Shown here piece after piece: positions 26,401-45,572 of a DNA stretch of 64,000 nucleotides. The first letter of the stretch is position 1, and each line of letters starts with the position of its first letter. A program made the translations under genes and the position numbers. Under the pieces are notes generated by a model that was not told the DNA's origin, made no database searches, and saw only the letters and a list, made by a program, of their open reading frames with translations. Source of the DNA: Stegostoma tigrinum (Eukaryota); the NCBI RefSeq assembly GCF_030684315.1, contig NC_081355.1:25259316-25323315 (forward strand), read 5' to 3'.

Positions 26401-27054
26401 GAATATAAAATGTAAGTCAAAAACATAAATTGAAATTACATTAATTGAAAGAATAGGAGAGGCAGGTGAAAGTTCAAACTTGAGAAAGGCAAGCTTACTG
26501 ATTTGAGGAATTGAATGGTCACATGTGGAGGGATCAATGTCAGGACTTCTGGGGTTGATGTTGGAGGTAAATTGTGCAAATCATTTAAAAAAATTAAAAG
26601 CTGCAGATTTTTTTCCGGGTAGGTGTGCTGAGATCAGCTAAATTACTCAACAAAGAAATTGTGTGAAAGATTTCAATAGGCAATTGTCCAGTTACAAGTT
26701 GGAAATATTGAATATAACAAGAGAAATTCATTGTGGCAATGCCACTGATACATTTTACGTGCAAGCCGGTAAATACTAAGTCATGATGTAAGCTTCCCTT
26801 GAACTCCAGCAAGTGTGAAAGGGAAGCGGAGTATAAAAGATCTGCACGTGTGAAAAAGAAAAGTTTACAATAGAAGTACAAGAAATCTTTTAGCTTTTAT
26901 AGACAGAAGTAAAAAGTACAAAAGCATGAATGCTGAATCTTTAAAAATCACCAGCTAGACTAAATTTTTAGCATGTGGTAGGAACGATCTAGGAAGCACC
27001 CTTGAAGAGGATGTATGAAAGATTTATCAAAAAGATACAAGGGAAGAGGGACTG

Positions 27055-27285
27055 AGAGAGATAATGGGAACTGCAGATGCTGGAGAATCCAAGACAACAA
27101 AATGTGAGGCTGGATGAACACAGCAGGCCAAGCAGCATCCCAGGAGCACAAAAGCTGACGCCTCGGGCCTAGACCCTTCATCAGAGAGCCTCTCTGATGA
27201 AGGGTCTAGGCCCGAGGCGTCAGCTTTTGTGCTCCTGGGATGCTGCTTGGCCTGCTGTGTTCATCCAGCCTCACATTTTGTTGTC
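27055..27285. mobile_element. Non-autonomous PLE fold-back element with mirrored A-to-G changes
   Basis: Perfect inverted arms centred at about 27189; exact TSD AGGGAAGAGGGACTG at 27040-27054 and 27286-27300. Confidence 0.95.
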
Positions 27286-28362
27286 AGGGAAGAGGGACTG
27301 GTTGGTTTTCATTTAAGGAGAGTTAGTGAGCTTCGGAGCTAACCAATGTACAAAACATCCCTTAATATACAATAATTCCCTGAATTGTTTAATGAATCTG
27401 TTTCTGCTCTTTGTTTTCTATCTATCAGTAAATATGCATAAATTGTAAGAATGCACTGCCCTGGCATTCACATTATGTTTACTTCTTTGTAGCAATTAAG
27501 GAAAACTGAACAAAAATATTCAGGATTTAGTTGATTTATAAATGATGATAATTGTAGATAATTGTGTTTGGTATTAAAGCATTAGATCAAGCCAGCAGAG
27601 CTTCGAAGGAATGAACAGAGTAGAAGATGATGTGTGAAACCAATCAGAGAGGATTCTTGTGGCAAACACAACATTGTAACTGTAATGACAGATCCTTTTG
27701 TTAGACGATGAATTGGCAGGAGCAAGAGGACATCACAGTCACAGGGTGCTGCTGAAATTTATTGGAACGATACCAAGGATGATGGGTTTCAATTGTGCAG
27801 AGAGTCAAAAGCTGATGAGTTTGTTCTTGTTAGAACAGAGAAATTAAAATAGAGATTTTACAGGAATCTTCACAATGTGTTTTGATAGAATGATGAAATC
27901 AAAACTATTTTCATTGATAGGATGCTCAATAACTATAAAAACACAGAATTAACGCTATTGGTTCAAGAACCAGAGGAAAGTGAGAAACATTCTTCTTTTA
28001 GACAATGAGTTATTGTGATCTGAAGTGCAATGCAGATGGAATCAGATTCATCAGTAATTTCAAGAAAAGGATGATCAAATTCATTATATTTTACTGTATA
28101 CTTCAAAATGAAAAAGAAAGTAGGAATGTGAGGAAAGAATAAACATGTCTTACCAATTACATAATTCCCATGTTGTCAACTTTTACTGTTACACAATTTG
28201 GCTTTGTAGCTGGATAAGTTTTAGAAGGGTGCTGAAAGTTGTTGGGCAGCTGTTCCTGATGACTTCCAGCGTGTCCAAGGCTGACCATTATGTAGTGAAG
28301 GATAATATTTTGGGCATGTCTTGTACGTGCTGGAAACATGTACACTGGCCAGATCATAATGT

Positions 28363-37862: not shown

Positions 37863-38079
37863 CAATTGCTCTGTCTCTTTCAAATCACCGAGCCTTTCTG
37901 TGAATACCAGAGAAGCTACAAGTTTTGCTCTTCCAAATCATTCTCGAGGGCTAAATCAACTATTCCTATAAGCTCGTAGAGAGAGATAATGGGAACTGCA
38001 GATGCTGGAGATTCCAAGATAATAAAATGTGAGGCTGGATGAACACAGCAGGCCAAGCAGCATCTCAGGAGCACAAAAG

Positions 38080-38111
38080 CTGACGTTTCGGGCCTAGACC
38101 CTTCATCAGAG
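38080..38111 (-). ncRNA. Minimal hammerhead ribozyme motif
   Basis: Reverse complement CTCTGATGAAGGGTCTAGGCCCGAAACGTCAG; intact core. Confidence 0.75.
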
Positions 38112-38277
38112 AGGGGGATGGGGGGAGGGAACTGGAATAAATAGGGAGAGAGGGGGAGGCGGACCGAAGATGGAGAGCAAAGAAGATAGGTGGAGAGGGT
38201 GTAGGTGGGGAGGTAGGGAGGAGATAGGTCAGTCCAGGGAAGACGGACAGGTCAAGGAGGTGGGATGAGGTTAGTAC

Positions 38278-39096
38278 GCCCTTGACCGCGTCTCCCGCAT
38301 TTCCCGCGACACATCCCTCACACCCCGCCCCCGCCACAACCGCCCCAAGAGGATCCCCCTCGTTCTCACACACCACCCTACCAACCTCCGGATACAACGC
38401 ATTATCCTCCGACACTTCCGCCATTTACAATCCGACCCCACCACCCAAGACATTTTTCCATCCCCACCCCTGTCTGCTTTCCGGAGAGACCACTCTCTCC
38501 GTGACTCCCTTGTTCGCTCCACACTGCCCTCCAACCCCACCACACCCGGCACCTTCCCCTGCAACCGCAGGAAATGCTACACTTGTCCCCACACCTCCTC
38601 CCTCACCCCCATCCCAGGCCCCAAGATGACATTCCACATTAAGCAGAGGTTCACCTGCACATCTGCCAATGTGGTATACTGCATCCACTGTACCCGGTGC
38701 GGCTTTCTCTACATTGGGGAAACCAAGCGGAGGCTTGGGGACCGCTTTGCAGAACACCTCCGCTCAGTTCGCAACAAACAACTGCACCTCCCAGTCGCAA
38801 ACCATTTCCACTCCCCCTCCCATTCTCTTGATGACATGTCCATCATGGGCCTCCTGCACTGCCACAATGATGCCACCCGAAGGTTGCAGGAACAGCAACT
38901 CATATTCCGCCTGGGAACCCTGCAGCCATATGGTATCAATGTGGACTTCACCAGTTTCAAAATCTCCCCTTCCCCCACTGCATCCCTAAACCAGCCCAGT
39001 TCATCCCCTCCCCCCACTGCACCACACAACCAGCCCAGCTCTTCCCCCCCACCCACTGCATCCCAAAACCAGTCCAACCTGTCTCTGCCTCCCTAA
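38278..39096 (+). CDS. PLE ORF C-terminus, 5'-truncated: Cys linker and GIY-YIG endonuclease
   Basis: Open frame with CNRRKCYTCPH and NVVYCIHCTRCGFLYIGETKRRLGDRFAEH; matches the 43794-44765 copy. Confidence 0.9.
   Translation, partial: ALDRVSRISRDTSLTPRPRHNRPKRIPLVLTHHPTNLRIQRIILRHFRHLQSDPTTQDIFPSPPLSAFRRDHSLRDSLVRSTLPSNPTTPGTFPCNRRKCYTCPHTSSLTPIPGPKMTFHIKQRFTCTSANVVYCIHCTRCGFLYIGETKRRLGDRFAEHLRSVRNKQLHLPVANHFHSPSHSLDDMSIMGLLHCHNDATRRLQEQQLIFRLGTLQPYGINVDFTSFKISPSPTASLNQPSSSPPPTAPHNQPSSSPPPTASQNQSNLSLPP
38966..39080 (+). repeat. Three imperfect ~39-bp tandem units at the PLE ORF end
   Basis: CCCACTGCA..AACCAGCCCAG repeated, encoding PTASLNQPSSS / PTAPHNQPSSS / PTASQNQSN. Confidence 0.8.
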
Positions 39097-39097
39097 C

Positions 39098-40681
39098 TGA
39101 TGTACTGAAAATTTTGTCAAACATTAAGATTGACAAGTCGCCAGGCCCGGATCAGATTTGTCCTCGGCTGCTTTGGGAAGCGAGAAATGCAATTGCTTCG
39201 CCACTTGCGAAGATCTTTGCATCCTCGCTCTCCACTGGAGTCGTACCTGAGGACTGGAGAGAGGCAAATGTAATTCCTCTCTTCAAGAAAGGAAATAGGG
39301 AAATCCCCGGCAATTATAGACCGGTAAGTCTCACGTCTGTCGTCTGCAAGGTGTTAGAAAGGATTCTGAGGGATAAGATTTATGACCATCTGGAAGAGCA
39401 TGGCTTGATCAAATACAGTCAACACGGCTTTGTGAGGGGTAGGTCATGCCTTACAAACCTTATCGAGTTTTTTGAGGATGTGACTAGTAAGGTTGATGAG
39501 GGTCAAGCTGTGGATGTGGTGTATATGGACTTCAGTAAGGCATTTGATAAGGTTCCCCATGGAAGGCTCATTCAGAAGGTCAGGAGGAATGGGATACAGG
39601 GGAACTTAGCTGCTTGGATACAGAATTGGCTGGCCAACAGAAGACAGCGAGTGGTAGTAGAAGGAAAATATTCTGCCTGGAAGTCAGTGGTGAGTGGGGT
39701 TCCACAGGGCTCTGTCCTTGGGCCTCTACTGTTTGTAATTTTTATTAATGACTTGGACGAGGGAATTGAAGGATGGGTCAGCAAGTTTGCAGACGACACA
39801 AAGGTCGGAGGTGTCGTTGACAGTGTAGAGGGCTGTTGTAGGCTGCAGCGGGACATTGACAGGATGCAGAGATGGGCTGAGAGGTGGCAGATGGAGTTCA
39901 ACCTGGATAAATGCGAGGTGATGCATTTTGGAAGGTCGAATTTGAAAGCTGAGTACAGGATTAAGGATAGGATTCTTGGCAGCGTGGAGGAACAGAGGGA
40001 TCTTGGTGTGCAGATACATAGATCCCTTAAAATGGCCACCCAAGTGGACAGGGTTGTTAAGAAAGCATATGGTGTTTTGGCTTTCATTAACAGGGGGATT
40101 GAGTTTAAGAGTCGTGAGATCTTGTTGCAGCTCTATAAAACTTTGGTTAGACCGCACTTGGAATACTGCGTCCAGTTCTGGGCGCCCTATTATAGGAAAG
40201 ATGTGGATGCTTTGGAGAGGGTTCAGAGGAGGTTTACCAGGATGCTGCCTGGACTGGAGGGCTTATCTTATGAAGAGAGGTTGACTGAGCTCGGTCTCTT
40301 TTCATTGGAGAAAAGGAGGAGGAGAGGGGACCTAATTGAGGTATACAAGATAATGAGAGGCATAGATAGAGTCGATAGCCAGAGACTATTTCCCAGGGCA
40401 GAAATGGCTAGCACGAGGGGTCATAGTTTTAAGCTGGTTGGTGGAAAGTATAGAGGGGATGTCAGAGGCAGGTTCTTTACGCAGAGAGTTGTGAGAGCAT
40501 GGAATGCGTTGCCAGCAGCAGTTGTGGAAGCAAGGTCATTGGGGTCATTTAAGAGACTGCTGGACATGCATATGGTCACAGAAATTTGAGGGTGCATCCA
40601 TGAGGATCAATGGTCGGCACAACATTGTGGGCTGAAGGGCCTGTTCTGTGCTGTACTGTTCTATGTTCTATGTTCTATGTT
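39098..40681 (+). mobile_element. Young 5'-truncated CR1 LINE inserted in the PLE
   Basis: Uninterrupted ORF2 half, (GTTCTAT)n tail and flanking CTAAC duplication; the empty site is visible in the 43441-44768 copy. Confidence 0.95.
39114..40589 (+). CDS. CR1 ORF2 reverse transcriptase domain (endonuclease missing)
   Basis: 491-aa open frame with KSPGPD, NYRPVSLTS, YMDFSKAFDKVPH, GVPQGSVLGP and KFADD. Confidence 0.95.
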   Translation: MSNIKIDKSPGPDQICPRLLWEARNAIASPLAKIFASSLSTGVVPEDWREANVIPLFKKGNREIPGNYRPVSLTSVVCKVLERILRDKIYDHLEEHGLIKYSQHGFVRGRSCLTNLIEFFEDVTSKVDEGQAVDVVYMDFSKAFDKVPHGRLIQKVRRNGIQGNLAAWIQNWLANRRQRVVVEGKYSAWKSVVSGVPQGSVLGPLLFVIFINDLDEGIEGWVSKFADDTKVGGVVDSVEGCCRLQRDIDRMQRWAERWQMEFNLDKCEVMHFGRSNLKAEYRIKDRILGSVEEQRDLGVQIHRSLKMATQVDRVVKKAYGVLAFINRGIEFKSREILLQLYKTLVRPHLEYCVQFWAPYYRKDVDALERVQRRFTRMLPGLEGLSYEERLTELGLFSLEKRRRRGDLIEVYKIMRGIDRVDSQRLFPRAEMASTRGHSFKLVGGKYRGDVRGRFFTQRVVRAWNALPAAVVEARSLGSFKRLLDMHMVTEI

Positions 40682-40907
40682 CTAACCGGTTCTTCCTCTC
40701 ACCCATCCCTTCCTCCCACCCCCAGCCGCACCCCCAGCTACCTACTAACCTCATCCCACCTCCTTGACCTGTCCGTCTTCCCTGGACTGACCTATCCCCT
40801 CCCTACCTCCCCACCTACACCCTCTCCACCTATCTTCTTTGCTCTCCATCTTCGGTCCGCCTCCCCCTCTCTCCCTATTTATTCCAGTTCCCTCCCCCCA
40901 TCCCCCT

Positions 40908-40939
40908 CTCTGATGAAGGGTCTAGGCCCGAAACGTCAG
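40908..40939 (+). ncRNA. Minimal hammerhead ribozyme motif
   Basis: CTGATGA (40910-40916), A, stem II GGGT-CTAG-GCCC, GAAA (40930-40933), CGTC; predicted cleavage after C40937. Confidence 0.75.
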
Positions 40940-41899
40940 CTTTTGTGCTCCTGAGATGCTGCTTGGCCTGCTGTGTTCATCCAGCCTCACATTTTATTAT
41001 TCCTATAAGCTACCTATTGACTACGCCAACAGTTACCATTCCAGCCATTAGGTCACCCTCTAGGTGTATCTAAAATAAAAGCATTTACTCCCTGCTAACA
41101 CCATGTACTAAAACTTTGGCAATCAAGTTGCTCACATGAGGATAATTAGTTTGAGTGGCTCCTGTAATTTTGTGCATGACTATAGAATTACTTGTCATTT
41201 GAGGAATATCTTGTTGACAAGAATTCCCTTTGGTTCTCATGTACCTTGTTTACTTGCCTTGCACACACAACAGTTTATATTTGATCTCACTGCTGTTGTC
41301 AGAGGCACAGCTTAGTATGTGGTACTGCTGGCTGGTTGTACTTCTTTCTCTGCACTGCCTTTACGTATGCCTATACCTCACAACTTCCAGAAATTTGTAC
41401 AAACATGTCCCACCTTATGACAATGGTAAAACTTCAGACATCTCTTCCACCCTTAGCACTCTCGTTTCATGCCTGAGGAAGTCTTTCGGGAATCTTCACA
41501 ACTGTCCCTTCTTGTCCCTGGTTATTTTTCTTATTTCTTGTATTTGTGATTGTGATGAGAAACGGATTGGGTTTGTGGACCAGGTTACAATTGTCAAACA
41601 CTTCAGCTGCCTTTCTCGTTGTTGCAAGCTCTTGGTTTTCTTTATGAGATTCTATCAATTTATACAATGAAGTCTTAAATTCTTCTCGGAAAAGGATCTC
41701 ATGTGCAGTCTCTACCGTCAATGCCTTCACCCAATTAGCAATGTTATTTTACTTTACCCTCTCAAATTCTATATAAGTCTGCTCTAGCTACTTAAGGGTA
41801 TACAACATTCCTGCCTGCCAGTCACAGGGAGAAACTTGTATGCACTAAGAATAACCTTAATTGCCACTTTGTAATCTATACCCAAACCAAGCTATTCCA

Positions 41900-43305: not shown

Positions 43306-43539
43306 TGAAACCTCCTCAGAAAGCAAGCCATTACTTCATCAGCCATGTCTGACAGCCTGCTGTACATGAGTAGTGCTCAGCCTCCTCTTGCCATCTTGCA
43401 TACTAAGCTATCTTTGAAAAGAAATCAGAAATACCTCTGCGAGAGATGATGGGAACTGCAGATGCTGGAGATTCCAAGATAATAAAATGTGAGGCTGGAT
43501 GAACACAGCAGGCCAAGCAGCATCTCAGGAGCACAAAAG

Positions 43540-43571
43540 CTGACGTTTCGGGCCTAGACCCTTCATCAGAG
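43540..43571 (-). ncRNA. Minimal hammerhead ribozyme motif
   Basis: Same intact core as 40908-40939. Confidence 0.75.
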
Positions 43572-43793
43572 AGGGGGATGGGGGGAGGGAACTGGAATAA
43601 ATAGGGAGAGAGGGGGAGGCGGACCGAAGATGGAGAGTAAAGAAGATAGGTGGAGAGGGTGTAGGTGGGGAGGTAGGGAGGGGATAGGTCAGTCCAGGGA
43701 AGACGGACAGGTCAAGGAGGTGGGATGAGGTTAGTAGGTAGCTGGGGGTGCGGCTTGGGGTGGGAGGAAGGGATGGGTGAGAGGAAGAACCGG

Positions 43794-44765
43794 TTAGGGA
43801 GGCAGAGACAGGTTGGACTGGTTTTGGGATGCAGTGGGTGGGGGGGAAGAGCTGGGCTGGTTGTGTGGTGCAGTGGGGGGAGGGGATGAACTGGGCTGGT
43901 TTAGGGATGCAGTGGGGGAAGGGGAGATTTTGAAACTGGTGAAGTCCACATTGATACCATATGGCTGCAGGGTTCCCAGGCGGAATATGAGTTGCTGTTC
44001 CTGCAACCTTCGGGTGGCATCATTGTGGCAGTGCAGGAGGCCCATGATGGACATGTCATCAAGAGAATGGGAGGGGGAGTGGAAATGGTTTGCGACTGGG
44101 AGGTGCAGTTGTTTGTTGCGAACTGAGCGGAGGTGTTCTGCAAAGCGGTCCCCAAGCCTCCGCTTGGTTTCCCCAATGTAGAGAAAGCCGCACCGGGTAC
44201 AGTGGATGCAGTATACCACATTGGCAGATGTGCAGGTGAACCTCTGCTTAATGTGGAATGTCATCTTGGGGCCTGGGATGGGGGTGAGGGAGGAGGTGTG
44301 GGGACAAGTGTAGCATTTCCTGCGGTTGCAGGGGAAGGTGCCGGGTGTGGTGGGGTTGGAGGGCAGTGTGGAGCGAACAAGGGAGTCACGGAGAGAGTGG
44401 TCTCTCCGGAAAGCAGACAGGGGTGGGGATGGAAAAATGTCTTGGGTGGTGGGGTCGGATTGTAAATGGCGGAAGTGTCGGAGGATAATGCGTTGTATCC
44501 GGAGGTTGGTAGGGTGGTGTGTGAGAACGAGGGGGATCCTCTTGGGGCGGTTGTGGCGGGGGCGGGGTGTGAGGGATGTGTCGCGGGAAATGCGGGAGAC
44601 GCGGTCAAGGGCGTTCTCAATCACCGTGGGGGGGAAGTTGCGGTCCTTAAAGAACTTGGACATCTGGGATGTGCGGGAGTGGAATGTCTTATCGTGGGAG
44701 CAGATGCGGCGGAGGCGGAGGAATTGGGAATAGGGGATGGAATTTTTGCAGGAGGGTGGGTGGGA
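43794..44765 (-). CDS. PLE ORF C-terminal 323 aa: RT thumb, Cys linker, GIY-YIG
   Basis: SHPPSCKNSIPYSQFLRLRRICS (PLE RT thumb) is in frame with RIPLVLTHHP, CNRRKCYTC and VY..YIGET; no stops. Confidence 0.92.
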   Translation of the reverse strand, partial: SHPPSCKNSIPYSQFLRLRRICSHDKTFHSRTSQMSKFFKDRNFPPTVIENALDRVSRISRDTSLTPRPRHNRPKRIPLVLTHHPTNLRIQRIILRHFRHLQSDPTTQDIFPSPPLSAFRRDHSLRDSLVRSTLPSNPTTPGTFPCNRRKCYTCPHTSSLTPIPGPKMTFHIKQRFTCTSANVVYCIHCTRCGFLYIGETKRRLGDRFAEHLRSVRNKQLHLPVANHFHSPSHSLDDMSIMGLLHCHNDATRRLQEQQLIFRLGTLQPYGINVDFTSFKISPSPTASLNQPSSSPPPTAPHNQPSSSPPPTASQNQSNLSLPP

Positions 44766-45572
44766 GCACAGAAATACCTCTGCACCATTTTGGCCAAATT
44801 TTCAGAGGCATGCATAAATTTCAGCAGCTCCCCATTGGGTCTTGGTTTAGACTCAGATATTTACTTGTCAGAATGCTTCTTGGTCTCAGAGGCCTTTTAT
44901 TTATTTCCAGCTATTTAAACTGATATTCTCTCTCGCTACTCTTTCCCTCAACTTAATTTCTAGATCTAAATTCTTAAATTCTCTTTATTTTTTACTTCTC
45001 GCTCTGAAGTGCTATGTCTTTTTCTTCCCCCTCCCCCTGCAGTGCTGTTTATCCTCCTTTTTCTGCTCTGTGCAATTCTTCTCTTTGAAGTCTAAGTTTT
45101 TAATTCCCATTTATTTTTCCCATTTAACCAGCTTTGCAATTGAATTCTTTCAATCTCTATTAACTCACCATCTGACTGGATTCACCATTCTTCCAATTCA
45201 AAAGTTGTGCTATTGCCTCAGTTACATTGCTGTCCTAGCCTTTATTTTTAGCTCTCATTCCGAATTCTCGGCCAAACCTTGGTTATTCTTGCAAGTCATT
45301 CAGGAATAAATTTCTGTGCAGAAAATTCTTAGTGTTTGCCAAAGCCATTTTGGTATAATACTGCTCAATAAACCTAACGTATTTCCTACAACCCTTCCAA
45401 ATATTGACACCCAGCTTTCAATTAAAGTTTGCATGAGGTATCCTATTGTGAGCACCAGTTATGTTCTGACCAATATTGAGGAGTGCGCTATTGCTCTAGT
45501 CCTACAACTTCACAGGTCACAACTTAGAATACTTTTTCTGTTTATCAAGAAAACCAATTAGGTAACTTATCC

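Follow-up and report, generated by a model that had tools for sequence, protein, structure and literature searches.

The insertion described here lies at positions 27055-27285 of a 64,000-nucleotide stretch of the Stegostoma tigrinum genome, which as a whole is referred to as the window. It is composed of two inverted arms that flank a single spacer base (27189) and that are perfectly complementary over 27093-27188 and 27190-27285, giving a predicted fold of -214.2 kcal/mol (z -28). The insertion belongs to a repeat family with about a dozen copies within the window, and the 16-nt core of this family has 154,966 exact matches in the 3.2-Gb genome. The coordinates of the insertion and of two young copies of the same family are collected in Table 1.

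The family displays the anatomy of a Penelope-like element (PLE). A pLTR hammerhead motif, an inverted 5′ copy and a tail of 30-40 nt at one end are all present, and in 49 of 63 hairpins one arm ends at alignment columns 90-107 and the other at column 126 or more. YIGE and CxxC motifs are found in the translation of the family ORF, and its candidate GIY-YIG region matches PF01541 weakly, with an E-value of 7.7e-4 and 20.2 bits, below the cut-off of 22.6. The family may resemble shark elements. The RNA strand is fixed by the 5′-truncated copy at 43441-44801, whose ORF has the same sense as the hammerhead motif. Inverted 5′ copies, a minimal hammerhead and, at one of the ends, a tail of 30-40 nt have been described for known PLEs (PMC8557442, PMC4209133).

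Two further observations concern the family. A LINE fragment (39097-40682) lies inside the 3′ UTR of a young PLE copy and is accompanied by a duplication of about 5 bp; its frame at 38871-40589 is open, with an RT domain (PF00078, E 2.7e-35), and it ends in a short tandem-repeat tail. As the PLE parts around the LINE are 99-100% identical to the copy at 43441-44617, this insertion is recent. An 8-nt deletion that lies between short direct repeats, immediately 3′ of the site of hammerhead cleavage, has recurred on several backgrounds (L182, L192, L193, L198, L200, L202, L206, L207 and L211).

Table 1. The insertion at 27055-27285 and two young copies of its family (positions within the window)
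Feature	Position	Strand	Remarks
Left target-site duplication, 15 bp	27040-27054	+	Same 15-mer as 27286-27300
Right target-site duplication, 15 bp	27286-27300	+	Same 15-mer as 27040-27054
Long arm, 134 nt, sense copy of the Penelope-like pLTR 3′ end	27055-27188	-	Reaches the usual 3′ end of the family; 134-nt alignment to young copies; same sense as the family ORF
Tail, 38 nt, on one arm only	27055-27092	-	Without A>G; agrees with the PLE tail of 30-40 bp reported in PMC8557442 and PMC11167929
Short arm, inverted copy, 96 nt	27190-27285	+	0 differences from the long arm in 92 compared columns
Minimal type I hammerhead motif	27194-27221	+	Mirror at 27157-27184 (-); read from the sequence against the descriptor given in PMC4209133
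A14G and A15.1G of the hammerhead core, likely edits	27216-27217	+	GAGG 107 vs 3.3 expected; each changed in 13/17 hairpin-edited arms on which nothing was selected
A>G, likely an edit, or else passed down in a small G lineage	27238	+	Changed in 14/17 edited arms on which nothing was selected; 27238 G has only 20 exact matches on the same background
G at 27280 and G at 27283, subfamily markers, not edits of the 27055-27285 copy	27280-27283	+	4,602 matches; GAGG in 0/30 sampled; 27283 site 0/16 in edited arms
Young unedited inverted copy, the yardstick	37980-41000		Arms 37980-38276 and 38273-41000; second arm interrupted by a LINE
Young 5′-truncated copy with the ORF's putative C-terminal GIY-YIG part (43794-44801)	43441-44801	-	Fixes the RNA strand

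An earlier sequence-only reading had proposed that five A>G changes, mirrored in both arms, are a fossil of ADAR editing. In the register used here, in which the young copy 40906-41000 is set against 27190-27284, the sole differences are indeed A>G at 27216, 27217, 27238, 27280 and 27283, and the left arm carries the corresponding C at 27162, 27161, 27140, 27098 and 27095. The description given of the surroundings was also accurate, as the target-site duplication (TSD) is a perfect 15 bp on both sides, both core CpGs are unchanged and the six adenosines of the unpaired tail are all unaltered. The number of private sites, put at four or more, has to be lowered to three (27216, 27217 and 27238): G at 27280 occurs together with G at 27283 on the young background in 4,602 matches, none of 30 sampled matches with GAGG, so that these two are subfamily letters. 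In the edited partner arms described below, on which nothing was selected, the 27283 site is changed in 0/16, and the private three belong to the four most often changed sites (27216 and 27217 in 13/17 each, 27238 in 14/17). The exact five-change stretch is present in three insertions, namely 27055-27285, L012 and L022. On the background of 27055-27285, G at 27238 has only 20 exact matches, several of them mirrored, and 16 of the 20 carry no further A>G in the core region, so this letter could be inherited. Of the five sites, four of which had been said to fit a 5′ U/A preference, two are inherited markers, and among the remaining three 27238 has a 5′ G and is yet joint-hottest. The A after G in GAAA, described as spared, is changed in 6 of 17 heavily edited arms.

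The two core changes turn GAAA into GAGG. Across the genome GAGG is observed 107 times, where the single changes (375 and 1,357, among 154,966 GAAA) predict 3.3, and all four pyrimidine doubles together have 15 matches. A strand-mirror control, TT>CC in a similar context, was found in 1 of 107,908; since it has the disfavoured 5′ G on the antisense strand, it controls for tandem change at the DNA level only and not for antisense editing. From the 107 matches, 99 were fetched, and the removal of 15 duplicates of one insertion and 14 mirror arms left 70 independent insertions. At the other positions of the 38 young GAGG insertions, A>G affects 70 of 492 A and T>C 6 of 1,072 T, compared with 7/472 and 13/1,009 in 35 GAAA control copies, all of these counts including the 27280/27283 columns. 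The 0/38 at 27215 and 27222 in the GAGG copies is imposed by the search pattern and was not used. This is the genome-wide excess of strand-specific, clustered A>G that would be anticipated from editing.

A multi-copy GAGG subfamily, which the sequence-only reading had named as a refutation, is not what the copies display. GAGG is carried by all backgrounds, young, middle and old, in a ratio of 38/10/18 against 35/11/12 in the controls (p 0.65), and with the A columns masked its label changes 38 times, compared with 41.2 in shuffles, which rejects a clade. A subfamily origin is ruled out on these grounds for GAGG and is accepted only for 27280/27283; GAGG is a recurrent change and not a lineage. 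When A>G was sought at 27217 together with 27222, 224 matches were returned, 30 of which were sampled and show A>G at 82/323 and T>C at 4/623. With the GAGG matches added, doubly changed matches number about 331 against 154,966 intact ones, roughly 0.2%, a figure in which mirror arms and duplicates are counted and copies with light editing are missed.

At the sites corresponding to 27216 and 27217, A>G alone is 3.6 times commoner at the A before CpG (1,357) than at the neighbouring A (375), and samples of 30/375 and 30/1,357 were drawn mostly from one contig (C1), the remainder from another (C2). Because the change at the A before CpG is the commoner one and is unmirrored in 7/7 hairpins, it may reflect a DNA-level hot spot beside a methylated CpG. 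In addition, one edited insertion is found in 16 copies with common flanks, mostly on small contigs (L023, L104, L105, L107-L113 and L115-L120), which would represent an edited copy amplified by a segmental duplication or a satellite.

Hairpins with A>G clusters on the same strand of both arms constitute a second class, newly recognised here. In three GAGG hairpins (L027, L090 and L100) the partner arm is full of T>C, that is, of A>G on the strand of the GAGG arm. A search for arms with T>C clusters returned 76 matches, of which 53 were examined; 13 of these had 8-nt deletions or came from an older CC subfamily, and once a misaligned row, a duplicate and two second arms had also been set aside, 36 were left. 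Outside the searched columns, these 36 arms show T>C at 324/710 T and A>G at 4/342 A. In 17 adjacent partner arms, on which nothing was selected, A>G is found at 97/240 A and T>C at 1/425 T, 15 of the 17 being edited. A TSD of 12-17 bp flanks 11 of the 15 edited pairs, which indicates that same-strand pairs are single insertions. The changes keep to the paired part, with 79/143 there vs 1/65 in the tail and 34/72 vs 0/25 (pooled, 113/215 vs 1/90), and in L217, with arms of 500 bp, A>G reaches 32/87 and T>C 40/128.

The distribution of changes along the duplex can also be compared with what is expected of the enzyme. ADAR editing is asymmetric at the 3′ end of a duplex, and here, on each edited strand, the last 20 nt before the 3′ end of the duplex carry few edits (12/110, vs 83/165 at the 5′ end). 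The change rate by 5′ neighbour is 0.76 for A, 0.50 for U, 0.42 for C and 0.31 for G, with a site-level p of 0.05 and two very hot 5′-G sites (14/17 and 25/36). It has been reported that duplex ends affect ADAR editing and that its 5′ neighbour preference runs in this same direction (PMC3113232). The genome contains 25 matches above cut-off to the ADAR-type deaminase domain PF02137, in about seven places, ADAR1/2 and ADAD/ADAT taken together. An assembly or long-read artefact is unlikely in view of the TSDs and of public contigs tiled across the hyper-edited L090 arm and the adjoining flank without differences, none of them spanning the whole stretch and all possibly stemming from the assembly's own sample.

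Some T>C-cluster arms are found in other arrangements. The partner is unedited in L189, L197, L212, L218 and L224. In L189, L197, L186, L210 and L230 the T>C-cluster arm is joined to a longer unedited copy, and joins of the L189 type suggest template switching onto edited antisense RNA. At L212 (2586-5458) and L224 (2876-3918) a unit made of an unedited sense arm and a T>C-cluster arm is present twice, inverted and 0.8-2 kb apart, the repeated units having identical or near-identical changes. In L227 and L231, several hairpin-edited units are found within 1-1.5 kb of one another at one locus.

The editing of a hairpin does not in itself produce mirrored arms, which result from one edited arm being copied twice. 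Mirroring is present in 26 of the 36 GAGG insertions with a close inverted arm, as against 2 of 16 single-change hairpins (0/7 and 2/9 for single changes at the same two bases), and of the 13 in another edited set nine are mirrored, two half and two same-strand. Among 17 young mirrored pairs, the other changes common to both arms comprise 13 A>G and one T>C, one-arm changes being of all kinds, and T>C clusters next to the loop are mirrored in 0/17. The A>G bias of the shared changes, together with the unmirrored T>C clusters, gives the mirror an RNA polarity and places its origin at insertion. The sequence-only reading had left the choice between one template segment and later homogenisation of the arms; the former, acting at insertion, is supported by the 26/36 against 2/16, and the latter is disfavoured. 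GAGG hairpins without mirror amount to 10/36, only three of which are clear same-strand cases, and these, along with the T>C arms that have unedited partners, imply that the two arms do not always come from one RNA. This points to template switching or the use of two RNAs in some events.

How the second arm of mirrored copies arises may be approached through an element of the anole, in which reverse transcription has two start sites bounding the tail, cutting and extension affect both strands of the target, and the protein is predicted to form a dimer (PMC11167929). The clustering of arm ends in 49/63 hairpins matches two such start sites. From the two-site start and the extension of both strands we infer that both target ends prime at two sites on one RNA, in which case the two cDNAs would meet across the loop. 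The second arm would then be another cDNA, begun at the inner start site with the opposite target end as primer, a proposal to which we give an even chance. Fold-back on the first cDNA is a possible but less probable origin, and the repair of a fresh heteroduplex is an unlikely one. In the young copy at 37980-41000, the inverted arm begins in the ORF, far upstream of the stop of the primary arm, and hence cannot result from simple fold-back. The copy has a TSD of about 14 bp, and priming from both ends fits it better. Fold-back still fits short copies such as 27055-27285. The mosaic arms of L217 and L219 are predicted by twin priming and fold-back alike, and the G involved is also a variant.

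Taken together, the clusters of this family almost certainly originated in ADAR editing, and 27055-27285 was very probably copied, as identical inverted arms, from an RNA with three adenosines converted to inosine by ADAR. That an edited RNA was retrotransposed, as had been proposed from the sequence alone, is borne out by hairpin-wide clusters within TSDs and by the family-wide excess of A>G on one strand. According to this model, existing inverted copies would be transcribed and would fold into hairpins of 95-500 bp, both strands of which would be edited by ADAR. The RT of the element, supplied in trans, would start at the 3′ start sites on the sense arm and read inosine as G. One cDNA continuing through the loop and the antisense arm would yield same-strand A>G in both arms (L090, L183, L217), and a second arm taken from the same sense arm would yield mirrored edits, as in 27055-27285. 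The loss of the hammerhead core would be collateral damage at favoured adenosines.

The alternatives differ in the moment and in the molecule at which the changes are placed. The three changes might already have been fixed in a donor, itself an edit fossil or a mutant, and copied without new editing, as could be argued from the exact five-change stretch in three insertions, from the 20 matches with 27238 G on this background, several of them mirrored, and from the 7 of 38 young GAGG copies that lie on the 27280/27283 background, above its share of about 4%. We regard this second-generation origin as quite improbable, given that GAGG is found on all backgrounds and a clade is rejected, that the same set of changes appears on differently marked backgrounds (27055-27285, L012, L069) and that the three sites are those recurring in unselected edited arms. 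A perfect palindrome can extrude, and gene conversion between its arms is plausible. The 96-bp palindrome of 27055-27285 is of this kind, and a tandem mutation of the DNA after insertion could in principle have been copied from arm to arm by cruciform or hairpin repair. This explanation is largely refuted and retains only the slightest probability: single changes at the same two bases are rarely mirrored (0/7 and 2/9), one-arm changes of every type persist in mirrored pairs, the TT>CC control gave 1 of 107,908, and late conversion would be without polarity, whereas the T>C clusters by the loop are mirrored in 0/17.

A source of A>G other than RNA editing, either an error-prone RT on structured RNA or deamination of the DNA strand in an RNA:DNA hybrid, deserves consideration because a hairpin is symmetric and same-strand clusters alone cannot separate RNA from cDNA. 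It has been stated that DNA, too, can be a substrate of ADARs, at A-C mismatches in hybrids (PMC12925331), and the neighbour bias found here is moderate. Against such sources, the polarity of the mirrored changes is that of the coding RNA strand, and up to half of the adenosines are changed in the duplex only, other substitutions staying at background, which makes these sources very improbable.

The consequences for the ribozyme are a separate matter from the origin of the changes. The young copy at 40910-40937 has a CUGANGA and GAAA core, an extra base before helix II, a G10.1-C11.1 pair, palindromic 15.2-16.2 and a UH triplet, as compared with the description in PMC4209133. Its helix I is only 2 bp, short of the usual 4-5 bp, a 2-bp helix I having been reported for Drosophila virilis in the same source. 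Rfam gave no match at gathering scores in the window, nor at E up to 10 on the young copy. In 27055-27285, A14 and A15.1 are G, and the motif there departs from the hammerhead core. A14G is a standard inactivating change that abolishes hammerhead cleavage (PMC4889925). Cleavage by metazoan PLE hammerheads is described as weak (PMC4209133), and ribozyme mutants of the anole element had no effect on insertion in vitro (PMC11167929).

The sequence-only reading had suggested that host editing can disable the ribozyme, which, extended into a purpose and a defence, would stop further copying. In favour of this, the GAAA core contains G in 15 of 17 unselected hairpin-edited arms, so that edited daughters likely carry dead motifs, and A14G is of the abolishing kind (PMC4889925). 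We consider a defensive function unlikely nonetheless. The motif is sequestered in the predicted duplex of the hairpin RNA, where it would be unable to fold; edits spread along both arms; the edited RNAs were inserted all the same; intact matches number 154,966 and doubly changed ones about 331; and insertion in vitro is unaffected by ribozyme mutants (PMC11167929). With edits along both arms, a sequestered motif, a 2-bp helix I, no Rfam match and unaffected anole mutants, we read the knock-out as collateral, and the purpose attributed to it is not supported.

Overall, we lean slightly towards a loop in which the hairpins are transcribed, hyper-edited by a germline ADAR and re-inserted by the RT, constituting a recurrent heritable mutagen whose arms are primed from the two target ends at two RT start sites on one RNA. 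If this were true, a reference assembly would hold hundreds of datable editing fossils, providing genomic evidence of A-to-I editing turned into inherited DNA change at scale via a non-LTR retrotransposon, along with a map of germline ADAR site preference for an animal without editing data. It would also explain how these elements make inverted ends and, as the edits label template molecules, the formation of PLE inverted ends and tails would become testable from assemblies alone. Moreover, clusters of A>G or T>C would be an added class of mutation that inflates repeat age estimates and lies outside the APOBEC screen. Searches of a mainly open-access literature turned up no account of non-LTR copies edited by ADAR in a reference genome, and a term search of the text available for PMC12599553, PMC11263572, PMC7186786, PMC4365171 and bioRxiv 10.64898/2026.07.22.740005 gave no relevant passage.

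In L1 twin priming, the two parts cover neighbouring stretches, unlike the arms of 27055-27285, which cover the same stretch twice. Both target ends are described as priming on one RNA in that system, as is proposed here, leaving an inverted 5′ part within one TSD (PMC2837659). The closest precedent for the editing itself is the hypermutation of avian retroviruses, namely Rous-associated virus as well as avian leukosis virus (Felder 1994, and Hajjar and Linial 1995, as cited in the review PMC12925331), in which A>G clusters at near half of the adenosines arose in an inverted-repeat region and were fixed in DNA by reverse transcription. Those viruses are infectious, whereas the present element is an endogenous, inherited non-LTR element with hundreds of independent germline insertions in which both arms can be read. 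Vertebrate retroelements edited by APOBEC (PMC2873906, PMC4866542) likewise carry genomic clusters of one type on one strand as the fossil of a host deaminase, but these are G>A from the deamination of cDNA, in contrast to the A>G found here, which depends on a duplex and has RNA polarity. The vertebrate-wide APOBEC screen deals, in its available text, with LTR elements and a G-to-A filter, and the term 'ADAR' is absent from that text.

Hyper-edited inverted repeats in transcripts (PMC4365171, PMC11263572) share with the present hairpins the editing of both duplex arms and, here as a tendency, the depletion of an upstream G, although there the edits are seen in RNA against unedited DNA, whereas here the edited molecule has been re-inserted. 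Finally, the Penelope/Poseidon PLEs (PMC8557442, PMC4209133, PMC11167929) resemble this family in a GIY-YIG, putative here, at the ORF end, the minimal hammerhead in the pLTR, the inverted copy and the tail of 30-40 nt bounded by two RT start sites. As far as the consulted text of those papers extends, the origin of the inverted structure is left open and editing is unreported, while in the present family the edits act as barcodes of the template.
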